The notes: generated by a model not told the origin, from the sequence alone. A stretch of 64,000 nucleotides of DNA from Candidatus Peribacteria bacterium RIFOXYB1_FULL_54_35 (GCA_001787755.1 MFYJ01000001.1:946-64945); one strand, 5' to 3'. Counted from the first letter of the stretch, positions 37,683-41,103 are shown. Numbers and translations are program-made.

Positions 37683-40439
37683 ATGCCTCGTTTTGTTCCT
37701 CCCCACGGGTTTGTTCTCAGCACTCTGGCACTCCTCCTGCTCAGTCATCCTGCACACATCAGTGCACAGAGAGCAGAGGAAATTATTGCCTTGCGGCCAG
37801 GAGGAATTTTCGAGATCTATGCTGACACCGTCACACCTGATCCAAAAATCAGCTGGGTATTCAGCAAAGGAAGCACGTTCGTCCAGGCTGACAGAGGACC
37901 TCTGTTTAGTATCCGTCCAACGGAGGAAGGGGAGTACTTCCTCACGGGGGAAGTTGCTGATGCACAAGACACCCCGCTCCGAAAGCTTTTTAAAATCCAG
38001 ATGCGGGCAGACGCGCCCATCATCTCTCAGTCAGACACGGAAGGCGATACGCTCGTGCGTGTCTCTCCTACGCCGAATGAAACAAACATGTCCATCCTGA
38101 GAGGCGAACAGCGTGTCGTACGACTCGACATCATTCATCCGGATATCGAACAGCTGGCTCTCGACATTAATGCGGAGAAGGACCAAAGCAACGACGGTGA
38201 TCCCTTCAATGACAATATTCTCACGAACAGCGTCTTTAAGTCAGGACGCGGCAGCTTGCACATCTGGCTGACTCCCAGAATGCTGAACCAAACGTTCCTA
38301 TTGGTTGCACGGCTCAAAACTGGAGCGCTGGTTACGCAGAAAATTCAGGTGATCTCAGAAGACTACGAAGAAATACTGAAACAGAAAATAGAGCAGGAAG
38401 AGCAGGCGCGGAGAGACCGTACGACTATCGAATCGAAACTTGTTGGCGAACGGACATACCGACTCTCAGTCGATGCGGAGGATGGAGTGATAACAGAGAC
38501 AGTGTTTCACCATTGGGATTTCGGTGACGGCACCCAAAGTCTGATGGATGAACCGGAACATCAATTTCCCGAATCCCGCATGTACCAGGTGCGCGTTTCA
38601 GTGCGTGACGCCTATACAGGAAAAGAGATCCTTCTGGTACAGAAACCCTTTGAAGTTTCTGAGGGCACCATGCCAGAAATAACAGAACAAACACCTGGGA
38701 AAGAAGCAATGAATCCGGAAGCCGTTCAGGAATCAGCGAAGCAAACGAGCTACATTGTCGCAACAGTAATCAAGGCTCTCGTCATTCTCGCCATCTCGAT
38801 AGGCATTGGGATTCTCGCTGTGTTTCTGTTTGCAAAAATGAAAGGAAAATCCCTGCAGAAGTCGTTCGAAGAGGCTGAAAAGAAACTTGTGAAAGAACCT
38901 GGCACACGTACTCCGCCTCTGCAACTTGAAAAGCAAGAGGAGGAGAAAAAAGAGGAAGAAGACGAGAGGGAAAAGGAGAAAGAAAAAGAAAAGGCCCCGC
39001 TCGAAACCCCGGAGATCAACAGACAGGTCCCGAGCTGGCTTGCACCTTCGCCGCAAATAAGCAAAGCAGGAGAGAAAGGAGGAAAAGCTCCCTTAGATAC
39101 CTCTGTCCCCCCTCCCCCACCTCCTCCTCCTATTGCACAAAAAACTACAACCTCAGAGCACATACCCGGTACGTCGCAATCTGCAGTATCCGGAGGGCAG
39201 GGTGTACCGCAGGCAGCCGCACAGACTCCCACAGGCGGAGCTCCTGTCCCTCCATGGCTTCAGGGAGCAGTGACAACACCTGCAAAAGCTGCGCAACCTC
39301 TTTCTTCGGAGACACCACAAACAAGACCCACCGCCTCAGAACAAAAGACCACACCCACTTCGACAGGAACTGCAACTCCCCCCTGGTTAGTGGGAGCACA
39401 GACTCTTGAGGAACGTCACAAAGGAAGCACTCCCACAGAACCTGCATCTGCATCCCCTGCCACCCCCAAAACAGAACTACCCGCCCCTGCAAAAAATGAA
39501 GCATCTGTTCCACCCTGGCTGCAACAGACGCCAACTCCACCGCCCCCTGCCGCTGCAGAGCAGAAGATGAGAGCCACCACACCTCCTCCTGCACCATCAA
39601 TACAACATGCGGAGAACACTCCTCCATGGCTGCAGGGAGCAGGAGTAAAAACCACCACTCCTGCAACAAACACCCCCAGAAACCAAGGTGGGACGAGCGC
39701 AACAGGTAATATCTCAGCACAAAAAAATCAGACTGGCGCAAATACAGGAAGCACATCCCAACCCCCACTCCCTCCAACAACAAACCAAACCAGTGACGCA
39801 ATACAAGTGCAGCAAGCAGCAGATAGTGCAGCAGCAGAAAGCACACACTCGAAAGAAGAACGCGAACGGGAGCGCAAGCGCCGCAAACGTCAGCGGTACC
39901 GCGCGAACAAGCGCACACGAGAGCAAGAGGGGGAACAGACACAAGTACAGGCTGCACCTGCACCCACGGAATCCCCCGCAGTAAAGGATGCTCCCCCGCC
40001 GAAGAAGGAAACGCAGACACCACCATGGCTGCAGCACACACCTCCTTCTTCGAAACAAACACAGGAAACAATACCGCCACCGTCACCTCCCGCACCCCCC
40101 GCGCAGAGAGAGAATGCATCTGTCCCCCCCTGGCTGCAGGGAGTGCAGGCACAGAGCACTCAGAAACCACCTGCTAATTTCCCTCCGTCTGAGACCCCTC
40201 CTGCAACCAAGTCCACTCCTCTCCCACCTCCACCTCCCCAGGGAAATGCCCCCATTCCTGAATGGCTCAAGGGAACGAGCGCACCAACACCCCCTCCTCC
40301 GACTCAGCAACCAATACAACAAACCGGAAGTGATGATGATGTGAAGTTCGTGATCAGTGCGGACAGCGTGGAGGGGCAGCCTCCCCAGCCACATACACCG
40401 GGAGATGCGATTCCGCCTGCAGAGAAACAGGGAGAATAG
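37683..40439 (+). CDS. PKD-domain membrane protein with long Pro/Thr/Gln-rich tail
   Basis: Signal peptide, WDFGDG PKD motif, single TM, low-complexity tail with 8 PxWL motifs. Confidence 0.85.
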   Translation: MPRFVPPHGFVLSTLALLLLSHPAHISAQRAEEIIALRPGGIFEIYADTVTPDPKISWVFSKGSTFVQADRGPLFSIRPTEEGEYFLTGEVADAQDTPLRKLFKIQMRADAPIISQSDTEGDTLVRVSPTPNETNMSILRGEQRVVRLDIIHPDIEQLALDINAEKDQSNDGDPFNDNILTNSVFKSGRGSLHIWLTPRMLNQTFLLVARLKTGALVTQKIQVISEDYEEILKQKIEQEEQARRDRTTIESKLVGERTYRLSVDAEDGVITETVFHHWDFGDGTQSLMDEPEHQFPESRMYQVRVSVRDAYTGKEILLVQKPFEVSEGTMPEITEQTPGKEAMNPEAVQESAKQTSYIVATVIKALVILAISIGIGILAVFLFAKMKGKSLQKSFEEAEKKLVKEPGTRTPPLQLEKQEEEKKEEEDEREKEKEKEKAPLETPEINRQVPSWLAPSPQISKAGEKGGKAPLDTSVPPPPPPPPIAQKTTTSEHIPGTSQSAVSGGQGVPQAAAQTPTGGAPVPPWLQGAVTTPAKAAQPLSSETPQTRPTASEQKTTPTSTGTATPPWLVGAQTLEERHKGSTPTEPASASPATPKTELPAPAKNEASVPPWLQQTPTPPPPAAAEQKMRATTPPPAPSIQHAENTPPWLQGAGVKTTTPATNTPRNQGGTSATGNISAQKNQTGANTGSTSQPPLPPTTNQTSDAIQVQQAADSAAAESTHSKEERERERKRRKRQRYRANKRTREQEGEQTQVQAAPAPTESPAVKDAPPPKKETQTPPWLQHTPPSSKQTQETIPPPSPPAPPAQRENASVPPWLQGVQAQSTQKPPANFPPSETPPATKSTPLPPPPPQGNAPIPEWLKGTSAPTPPPPTQQPIQQTGSDDDVKFVISADSVEGQPPQPHTPGDAIPPAEKQGE

Positions 40440-40484
40440 TTGGCAGAGCGGTGTGTTGCATTTACTATTGCGCCCGCTACAACG

Positions 40485-40505
40485 TGGCGAGCTTAGCTCA
40501 GTTGG
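40485..40505 (+). repeat. duplicate of tRNA-His 5' end
   Basis: tggcgagcttagctcagttgg identical to 40579-40599. Confidence 0.9.
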
Positions 40506-40579
40506 CCTAGTCCCGCGCAGCGGGACGTGATAAAAAGAGGCCGCTCGGTGAAAATCGCCACAATCTCTTTCACACTTAT

Positions 40580-40657
40580 GGCGAGCTTAGCTCAGTTGGT
40601 TAGAGCGGATGGTTGTGGTCCATCAGGTCAAGGGTTCGATCCCCTTAGCTCGCCCCA
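40580..40657 (+). tRNA. tRNA-His (GTG)
   Basis: G-1:C73, acceptor GCGAGCT/AGCTCGC, anticodon arm GATGG-TTGTGGT-CCATC, T arm AAGGG-TTCGATC-CCCTT, CCA. Confidence 0.97.
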
Positions 40658-41082
40658 TCCGTCTTCGCGGTGTGAGGGCTACGAAGTTCCGTTCGTTGTT
40701 CCCGTAATGATCATAGCGATACCGCTTCGACGCGATTGGGGCTTGTGTTATAGTTCGACACTATGCATTACGTCTACATTCTCGAGTCTGCACTCGATGG
40801 CAGGCACTGGTACATCGGCGTAACAAGCAACCTACAGAAACGCCTGGAAGAACATAATGCGGGTGATTCTCTGCACACGAACAAATTCAAACCATGGAAA
40901 CTGAAGAGCTACACAGCCTTTACTACACGAGAACAAGCTGAAAAATTTGAGCGGTACCTGAAATCCAATTCAGGACGCGTGTTCGCAAAAAGGCACTTGT
41001 GAGCCGCGGCGTAGCGGTATCGCAAAGCTGGACCCAAGAATGATGGCATACGCATCAAATGCCCTCACGCCGCGAAGCCGGG
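40658..41082 (+). mobile_element. GIY-YIG cassette bounded by nested inverted repeats
   Basis: Outer IR 40658-40679/41061-41082 (19/22); inner IR 40716-40734/41005-41023 (17/19); flanked by 21-bp direct repeats. Confidence 0.7.
40763..41002 (+). CDS. small GIY-YIG nuclease (UPF0213/SLX1-like), 79 aa
   Basis: MHYVYIL...WYIGVT.NL.KRL.EHN.G...FERYLKS; extended -10 TGtTATAGT 8 nt upstream. Confidence 0.93.
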   Translation: MHYVYILESALDGRHWYIGVTSNLQKRLEEHNAGDSLHTNKFKPWKLKSYTAFTTREQAEKFERYLKSNSGRVFAKRHL

Positions 41083-41103
41083 CGATCCCCTTAGCTCGCC
41101 CCA
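41083..41103 (+). repeat. duplicate of tRNA-His 3' end
   Basis: cgatccccttagctcgcccca identical to 40637-40657. Confidence 0.92.

Follow-up and report, generated by a model that had tools for sequence, protein, structure and literature searches.

The sequence analyzed here (the window) is a 64,000-nucleotide (nt) stretch of Candidatus Peribacteria bacterium RIFOXYB1_FULL_54_35 (GCA_001787755.1 MFYJ01000001.1:946-64945), in which two nested inverted repeats surround a small nuclease gene directly behind a histidine transfer RNA (tRNA) gene. They belong to a cassette of 425 base pairs (bp; 40658-41082) that is flanked on one side by the intact tRNA-His gene and on the other by a perfect 21-bp copy of the T-loop-to-CCA end of this gene, and the sole gene of the cassette encodes a GIY-YIG nuclease of 79 amino acids (aa) of the SLX1/UPF0213 type. 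All features of this locus lie on the plus strand. The intact tRNA-His (GTG; 40580-40657), which has an encoded G-1 at 40580 as well as an encoded CCA, was detected by ARAGORN (40581-40657) and as tRNA by Rfam with 65.2 bits. Its segment from the T loop to CCA (40637-40657) is the first copy of the direct repeat. The second copy (41083-41103), a 21-nt fragment of the tRNA-His 3' end, is identical to the first at 21/21 positions (100%) and is followed by native flank, which the window shares with a related locus (L001) from 41099 on. As the cassette is followed on its far side by a copy of the very segment into which it is inserted, the tRNA-His stays whole.

The left arm of the outer inverted repeat (40658-40679) starts with the first base after the CCA of tRNA-His and contains, within its first 12 nt, the motif CTTCGC that characterizes the family described below, whereas the right arm (41061-41082) ends where the tRNA-end repeat begins (41083). 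The arms of the inner inverted repeat (40716-40734 and, by repeat search, 41005-41023) bracket the open reading frame (ORF; 40763-41002), with the left arm ending 28 nt before the ATG (40763) and the right arm starting 2 nt past the stop codon (41000-41002). The inner left arm overlaps the first hexamer of a sigma-70-like promoter match with a TG-extended second hexamer (40727-40754, a consensus match only), which ends 8 nt upstream of the ATG and is not followed by a Shine-Dalgarno-like stretch. If this predicted promoter is used, the nuclease mRNA may be leaderless or nearly so. A similar TG-extended hexamer at the same distance from the ORF is found in another relative, L003. The region behind the ORF can also form a local hairpin (41003-41083) of the type called module 2 below, which consists of a 5' strand (41003-41010), GTAGC (41011-41015), a long loop, CGAA (41073-41076) and a 3' strand (41077-41083).

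Pairing and folding of the inverted repeats

A sequence-only reading of this locus had proposed that the two inverted repeats loop the nuclease ORF out of a long stem and thereby unite the two tRNA ends. The repeats had been described correctly and are well above chance. The outer pair (40658-40679 with 41061-41082) has 19 of 22 Watson-Crick positions, and the three deviations are two T.G and one T.C opposition; a repeat search defined a core of 21 nt with 90% complementarity. The inner pair (40716-40734 with 41005-41023), which lies more tightly around the ORF, has 17 paired positions out of 19, the other two being T.T and A.G mismatches. In dinucleotide-preserving shuffles of 40658-41082 the score of the outer pair was reached in none and that of the inner pair in one of 300, which rules out a chance origin. 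Folding of the region from tRNA-His to the second repeat copy, a check which the same reading had suggested, placed both stems in the minimum-energy RNA structure (40580-41103; -185.5 kcal/mol, z = -4.46, 0/100 shuffles as low), and both stems were also present when the cassette was folded as DNA (40658-41082; -77.2 kcal/mol, z = -3.88, 0/100 shuffles as low). On the full strand, the long stems are favored over local hairpins by about 25 kcal/mol, and the local hairpin at 41003-41083 is mutually exclusive with both inverted repeats.

The nuclease family and its link to tRNA and tmRNA genes

The 79-aa protein matches the GIY-YIG catalytic domain and contains no other domain (Pfam PF01541, expectation value (E) 2.1e-17; score 63.6 bits, cut-off 22.6 bits; residues 1-72 aligned to positions 1-74 of the 78-position profile). 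The residues Y5, Y17, G19, R27, H31 and E63 are invariant in 14 aligned sequences and correspond to the catalytic Tyr, Tyr-x-Gly, Arg, His and Glu of this domain. Among proteins of solved structure, the closest in sequence are BH0048 and EF2693, two orphan members of UPF0213 (phmmer, PDB 1zg2 with E 1.1e-7 and 1ywl with E 0.0021), and NCBIfam holds no family for the 79-aa nuclease. An AlphaFold2 (AF2) model with a predicted local distance difference test (pLDDT) value of 90.5 retrieved 7wme, 1zg2, 4xlg, 6sei and 7cq2 at the top ranks of a Foldseek search. The best matches were At-HIGLE, with E 7.4e-4 and a template modeling (TM) score of 0.69, and Slx1, with TM scores of 0.68-0.76, whereas I-TevI ranked only 16th (E 0.67) and UvrC 22nd (E 1.1). 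Judged by this model, the protein appears nearer to the SLX1 lineage and UPF0213 than to I-TevI or UvrC. The C-terminal RING finger of eukaryotic Slx1 is absent, as the protein ends with the nuclease domain. Stand-alone prokaryotic Slx1-like proteins without RING finger and SLX4 partner were catalogued in 2006, and section 11 of that catalogue names no tRNA-gene neighborhood but only one fusion to a TrmH-like tRNA methylase (PMC1564403). At-HIGLE is described as an SLX1-lineage enzyme that resolves Holliday junctions and cuts branched DNA without a partner (PMC9071465). Relatives of the cassette nuclease cut folded or branched DNA and not a specific sequence, and a nuclease activity is predicted for the protein in the window as well. 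The family is large: clustering at 50% identity gives 5,797 clusters for E <= 0.001 and 1,004 for E <= 1e-10, and the best 150 representatives listed have a length of 78-214 aa.

One scan of species-representative genomes yielded 80 loci encoding relatives of the nuclease. We counted a locus as associated if a same-strand tRNA or transfer-messenger RNA (tmRNA) gene ends within 700 nt before the ORF and regarded loci with >150 nt of upstream sequence as testable. By this definition 51 of the 80 loci, or 51 of the 74 testable ones, are linked to such a gene; the median gap is 142 nt, and in 42 of the 51 the gap is within 200 nt. The RNA genes in question represent 17 tRNA species and 10 tmRNA genes, and 55 of the 71 RNA genes in the 433 kb of locus DNA fall in this narrow interval before the ORF. 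Among the remaining loci, L002, L016, L020, L048 and L057 have a tRNA-like 3' end that is cut by the contig edge or was missed by ARAGORN. According to the record titles, the loci come from Peribacteria and other Patescibacteria, Alphaproteobacteria, Gammaproteobacteria, Verrucomicrobiota, Acidobacteriota, Omnitrophota, Lentisphaeria, Bacteroidota and Planctomycetia. The cassettes have a size of 0.35-0.6 kb, and the same cassette lineage occurs behind different tRNAs, namely at His in the window and L003 and at a Tyr-like end in L002. The neighbors of the 51 linked cassettes are ordinary housekeeping genes. None of the 136 neighboring ORFs in these loci matched an integrase, recombinase or transposase family, and none was found in the 425-bp cassette. 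Searches with the nuclease by tblastn gave no match in 50,697 phage records and no match in a plasmid collection.

The window itself harbors a second cassette of the family, located on the minus strand behind tRNA-Tyr (1276-1778). It comprises the tRNA-Tyr gene (1694-1778, ARAGORN), hairpin modules visible in the sequence (1542-1693), an ORF for a 78-aa GIY-YIG protein with 47% identity to the 79-aa protein (1305-1541) and a 17-nt repeat of the tRNA-Tyr 3' end (1276-1292) with 16/17 identical positions.

In nearly every cassette of the family, the tRNA end is directly followed by a short variable stretch and then by the motif CTTCGC; further on comes a compact hairpin (module 2), whose 7-bp stem surrounds GTAGC, a loop and CGAA. 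Counted without regard to pairing, the module core is 11 times denser in the cassette flanks than elsewhere in the loci (71 copies in 8.4 kb versus 162 in 209 kb), and at least 6 of the 7 flanking pairs can form in 37 of the 71 flank copies versus 9 of the 162 others. The core is orientation-specific in the flanks, with 71 sense versus 22 antisense copies. In 20 aligned hairpins we counted 14 double changes versus 3.0 expected, a value reached in 0/500 shuffles; since these hairpins were chosen for pairing, the comparison of core densities is the fairer test. Furthermore, the 8-12 nt just before the hairpin are the exact reverse complement of the last base of the tRNA and the bases following it in 13 of 33 loci, and such an exact tRNA-end helix of at least 8 nt was found in only 8 of 996 cross-locus controls. 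As these helices are exact and have at least seven different sequences, the family shows covariation in a helix that begins at the tRNA end. In many loci the 3' strand of the hairpin, located 3-25 nt before the ATG, is rich in purines and resembles a Shine-Dalgarno sequence. Apart from two unrelated chance matches, the 64-kb window has these module motifs at its two tRNA-linked cassettes and nowhere else.

That the element is mobile is indicated by direct repeats, by arrays in tandem, by miniatures without ORF, by broken copies and by an almost identical copy in a genome that has otherwise diverged. Of the 51 loci, 12 have a repeat of the tRNA 3' end behind the ORF (11-24 nt, p <= 0.005) and 39 do not; the repeat in L031, a locus of the cultured Oceanicaulis sp. 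HTCC2633, probably belongs to a neighboring tRNA gene. The cassettes of the window and L001 differ at 1 position in about 500 nt, whereas the flanks are only ~83% (upstream) and ~91% (downstream) identical. In L001 (3321-4655) the repeat is followed by a second copy of the left 69 nt of the cassette, broken in the middle of the inner left arm, and then by a 1.2-kb insert, which encodes a 245-aa MerR/HTH_17 protein and a 92-aa ORF and ends in a 5-nt remnant of the tRNA end. This insert is a different cargo in the same frame as the cassette. L001 also carries a module-like hairpin of 39 nt (2698-2736) inside a 5' fragment of tRNA-His, between the bases of the D stem and the D loop, and as this hairpin is absent from the window, a miniature element has been gained or lost recently. 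In L004, L009, L027, L033 (1082-1540), L034 and L047 a single tRNA or tmRNA gene is followed by two or three module units in tandem, some of which have the first ~30 nt of the nuclease ORF at their end, which suggests repeated insertion or unequal exchange at one site. Extra module copies are located 3' of the ORF in L021, L024, L054 and L058, and a pair of hairpin modules without ORF in L039 (2703-2808), placed between a 15-nt tRNA-Ile 5' fragment and the intact gene, is a miniature version of the element. In L032 (780-1360), L066 (840-1360), L072 and L069 the cassette lies before an intact tRNA, the first 36-38 nt of which, up to the anticodon loop, are repeated upstream. Because cassettes on the 5' side repeat 5' parts of the tRNA, the breakpoints include the anticodon loop and the D loop besides the T loop. 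Frameshifts or internal stop codons break the nuclease ORF in L061 (3001-3238) and L066 (1013-1246), which are decaying copies. Finally, the proteobacterial loci L010 and L012 share the cassette from the middle of the left flank through the downstream flank, but in L012 the tRNA-His and the initial ~30 nt of the cassette are missing, which indicates a rearranged or truncated copy.

Origin and role of the inverted repeats

Cassettes that can be aligned over the repeats are those of the window, L001, L003 and L002, which amount to three independent sequences. Closer relatives than these exist as proteins (P0001-P0009). The arms of the inverted repeats are the best-conserved non-coding blocks in the three alignable relatives, and RNAalifold recovered both long stems with a signal that stems from conservation throughout. 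Among the alignable cassettes 14 of the 19 inner pairs are invariant, and of the outer stem only the first 12 pairs are kept in L003 and L002. In the wider family, the bases after the CCA have their partner upstream of the ORF in 22 of the 24 loci with a significant partner. The right flank of the ORF in the window is a homologue of the family hairpin, with stem sequences matching L030, L015 and L008, and as that hairpin lies upstream of the ORF in these loci, the ORF in the lineage of the window, L001, L003 and L002 sits inside what is a compact pre-ORF structure in other cassettes. The outer stem is the tRNA-end helix of the family stretched across the gene, and with its arms this lineage has its own version of the hairpin modules found together with the nuclease family at tRNA and tmRNA genes of many phyla. 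The same anatomy is found in L055 (Bacteroidota, tmRNA, 48% protein identity), where ORF-spanning arms of 18 nt with 94% complementarity, unrelated in sequence to those of the window, are placed directly at the tmRNA end and at a 20-bp repeat and lead into another nested pair. When left and right flanks were compared by RNAduplex in 31 scored loci, L001 (z -4.96), L006 (-4.52) and L003 (-2.41) stood out, but as this method allows huge internal loops, we replaced it by ungapped pairing tests.

The explanation we favor, and to which we assign roughly even confidence, is that a selfish cassette of 425 bp in the T-loop-to-CCA segment of tRNA-His has the outer repeat as its terminal and the inner repeat as its sub-terminal inverted repeat, with hairpin ends acting in cis for recombination started by the nuclease. 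The enzyme, which carries no sequence-reading domain, would act on folded DNA, that is on the hairpin or cruciform ends of the cassette and perhaps on the cloverleaf-prone tRNA gene. As single-stranded or cruciform DNA, the hairpin-forming ends would provide the sites at which recombination is initiated, and through this recombination a tRNA gene that is still unoccupied would receive a copy of the cassette, the homology arms being provided by the tRNA and the short repeat. The fold would also bring the two repeat copies together at the base of the stem and could in this way favor precise loss of the cassette. This last step draws on work on the excision of transposons. The same sequences would in addition shape the read-through transcript of the tRNA, which may be a second role.

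Several observations weigh against this explanation, and the evidence for the long stems themselves is mixed. The part of the sequence-only reading that concerned real arms at the exact ends of the cassette stood up, but the covariation analysis that it had suggested did not support the stems: no compensatory change was found in either stem among the four alignable cassettes with their three independent sequences, and the one double change present was equaled in 373/500 shuffles. The sole substitution between the cassettes of the window and L001 breaks a pair of the outer stem (A-T to A.C). The bases of the right arm can instead form the local hairpin that is conserved and covaries family-wide (41003-41010 with 41077-41083), and within it position 41004 faces 41082 as C-G in the window, as T.G in L003 and as T-A in L002. 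Folded alone, the right flank adopts this module-2-type hairpin with -29.1 kcal/mol, and the left flank alone likewise gives a local structure. Comparable pairing in other cassettes is rare, as among 10 further cassettes that were checked ORF-spanning arms were clear only in L055, weak in L006 and lacking in seven; the right arm of the sole long-range pair in L008 falls within the ORF. The tRNA-Tyr cassette of the window has no ORF-spanning inverted repeat either, and since only 9 nt separate its stop codon from the tRNA-end repeat, the 17-nt core of which starts 12 nt after the stop codon, there is no room for a right arm. The 28 module stems contain 5 G.T and 6 A.C oppositions, which favors neither strand and neither RNA nor DNA. 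As to the mechanism, the recombination steps are what we infer, the protein is a catalytic domain of 79 aa without DNA-binding domain, and the length of the repeats varies from 11 to 24 nt, unlike the product of a fixed staggered cut. Moreover, the intact tRNA copy would remain a target, which leaves the immunity of occupied sites unaccounted for.

The main rival explanation is a role of the structures in RNA, which we consider possible but on the unlikely side. The cassette would be read through from the strong tRNA promoter, and the tRNA-end helix and the pre-ORF hairpin would set the 3' processing of the tRNA, provide a protective stem at the 5' end of the mRNA and mask the ribosome site; the long stems would be a variant of one lineage, and mobility would rest on other features. 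The exact anchoring of the helix at the last base of the tRNA, a register defined by the end of an RNA, the orientation of the module-2 core, the Shine-Dalgarno-like strand shortly before the ATG and the low z-score of the RNA fold agree with such a role, and there is no terminator between tRNA and ORF save one weak match. However, a promoter-like site of the ORF itself lies 8 nt upstream of it in the window, where a Shine-Dalgarno-like stretch is lacking, a long-range stem spanning 380 nt across a translated ORF is unlikely to form during transcription, where local hairpins compete, and G.U-type oppositions are not in excess over A.C-type ones. The direct repeats, the tandem copies and the miniature copies would be left without explanation. 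It is also conceivable that both roles, in DNA recombination and in RNA, hold at once.

The cassette could also be the leftover of an integrase island or a non-autonomous miniature that is moved in trans, with the 21-bp repeat as attachment core, the outer arms as recombinase sites and the nuclease as cargo. A repeat from the T loop to the CCA end is reportedly the classical pattern of integration sites in tRNA genes, the inverted arms flank this repeat, and the two-gene insert behind the second left end in L001 shows that other cargo can occupy the frame. Nevertheless, we regard this explanation as improbable because no integrase, recombinase or transposase family was matched in the cassette or by the 136 neighboring ORFs of the 51 loci, and it is the nuclease gene that stays constant over 17 tRNA species, tmRNA and many phyla. 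Furthermore, a lineage present at His (window, L003) and at a Tyr-like end (L002) would need a new attachment core each time, and insertions also occur at the D loop and the anticodon loop with 5' repeats. Still far less probable, and rejected by us, is the likeness to an intervening sequence or ORF-bearing intron, which the sequence-only reading had put forward and in which removal from the transcript would join the tRNA body to the second 3' end. In silico the base of the stem does unite the first CCA with the duplicated 3' end, and the RNA fold pairs the 5' strand of the tRNA with the second 3' copy. But the tRNA is complete with CCA before the cassette starts, and the second copy comprises only 21 nt and is absent in 39 of the 51 relatives. 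An Rfam search at E <= 1 detected no group I or group II intron or other family at the window cassette, only the tRNA and two sub-threshold chance matches, and in 11 related loci nothing above threshold but tRNA and tmRNA.

As an extension of the selfish-cassette explanation, the family may represent an undescribed class of selfish elements, a proposal that we put forward tentatively and consider rather unlikely. Here, a bare SLX1-type nuclease would find its targets by shape, namely the cloverleaf or cruciform of tRNA and tmRNA genes and its own hairpin ends, and insertion at the T, D or anticodon loop would regenerate the RNA gene by duplicating the arm between the loop and the end of the gene. 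Targeting guided by shape would account for the presence of one nuclease family on at least 17 tRNA species and tmRNA in many phyla without an integrase.

Relation to known systems

The seg genes of phages are not known to have inverted-repeat ends or a repeat of a tRNA end, both of which are present in the cassette. Homing endonuclease genes such as segB are nevertheless similar to it in being small selfish GIY-YIG genes among tRNA genes, and they are presumed to spread by a break and recombinational repair that copies the gene and its flanks. The gene segB of phage T4 is a free-standing GIY-YIG homing endonuclease gene inside a tRNA gene cluster (PMC2330249). In contrast to the cassette protein with its single catalytic domain of 79 aa, the homing endonucleases I-TevI and Seg carry a DNA-binding domain; the predicted fold of the cassette nuclease is nearer to SLX1 than to I-TevI, and there is no match in the phage records. 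The nucleases of the SLX1 lineage (Slx1-Slx4, At-HIGLE) and UPF0213 share the catalytic fold and residues with the cassette protein, but SLX1-lineage enzymes act in repair and recombination with no reported link to tRNA genes, whereas the cassette gene travels with hairpin modules.

Integrase-mediated genomic islands are reportedly located at tRNA and tmRNA genes, and cis-mobilisable elements of streptococci are integrase-less derivatives of such islands. Like the cassettes, islands target the 3' part of tRNA and tmRNA genes, and a T-loop-to-CCA repeat restores the tRNA, in the cassette with all 21 nt identical. The cassettes differ from them by the lack of an integrase in or near the 51 loci, the small size, the constant nuclease and the insertions on the 5' side at the D and anticodon loops. 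Terminal inverted repeats that abut a target duplication, as in the window and L055, are a feature of inverted-repeat transposons; unlike in these elements, the duplications of the cassettes are not of fixed length and no transposase family is found nearby. Group I introns with endonuclease genes in bacterial tRNA genes resemble the cassette in that a nuclease ORF is looped out of a structured element, but the cassette has no ribozyme core, lies after the CCA and not in the anticodon loop, and leaves a tRNA that needs no splicing. Short hairpin repeats tied to one nuclease gene, ORF-less miniatures and a possible single-stranded DNA intermediate are shared with the REP/REPIN-RAYT system and with miniature inverted-repeat elements. 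The sequence-only reading had drawn this comparison, and we rejected a dispersed repeat of the REP type because the modules are confined to two cassettes in 64 kb and the enzyme is a GIY-YIG nuclease and not an HUH (Y1) transposase; moreover, the flanking repeats are tRNA segments of variable length.

In a full-text search that excluded most subscription journals we found no description of GIY-YIG cassettes at the ends of tRNA or tmRNA genes. If our explanation is true, the cassettes represent a second, integrase-free way to colonize tRNA and tmRNA genes, the classic landing sites of integrase islands, and thus new mobile-element biology. This would also assign a role to the large orphan UPF0213 or bacterial Slx1-like family and account for some of the short pieces of tRNA genes that mislead tRNA annotation. 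The cassette is a very small natural system for structure-guided DNA targeting, and annotators should expect a small nuclease ORF with hairpin modules right behind tRNA genes, especially in Patescibacteria, Alphaproteobacteria, Verrucomicrobiota and Acidobacteriota.

The region upstream of tRNA-His contains a further trace of the gene. A 21-nt fragment of its 5' end (40485-40505, plus strand), identical (100%) to 40579-40599 and spanning one base upstream, G-1, the acceptor strand and the D arm up to the D loop, sits 94 nt upstream of the gene, and the same layout is found in L001 and L003. The spacer of 73 nt between the fragment and the intact gene (40506-40578, plus strand) has a 7-bp hairpin (40510-40526) and is probably a decayed ORF-less insertion; the full hairpin modules of L039 are located at the equivalent place. 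A promoter-like site (40440-40468) precedes the fragment, which may therefore mark the original start of the gene. Further upstream, a 918-aa ORF (37683-40439) encodes a protein with much proline and low-complexity sequence, whose counterpart in L001 has a PKD domain. As both are only ~83% identical and differ by insertions and deletions, this ORF is evolving fast.

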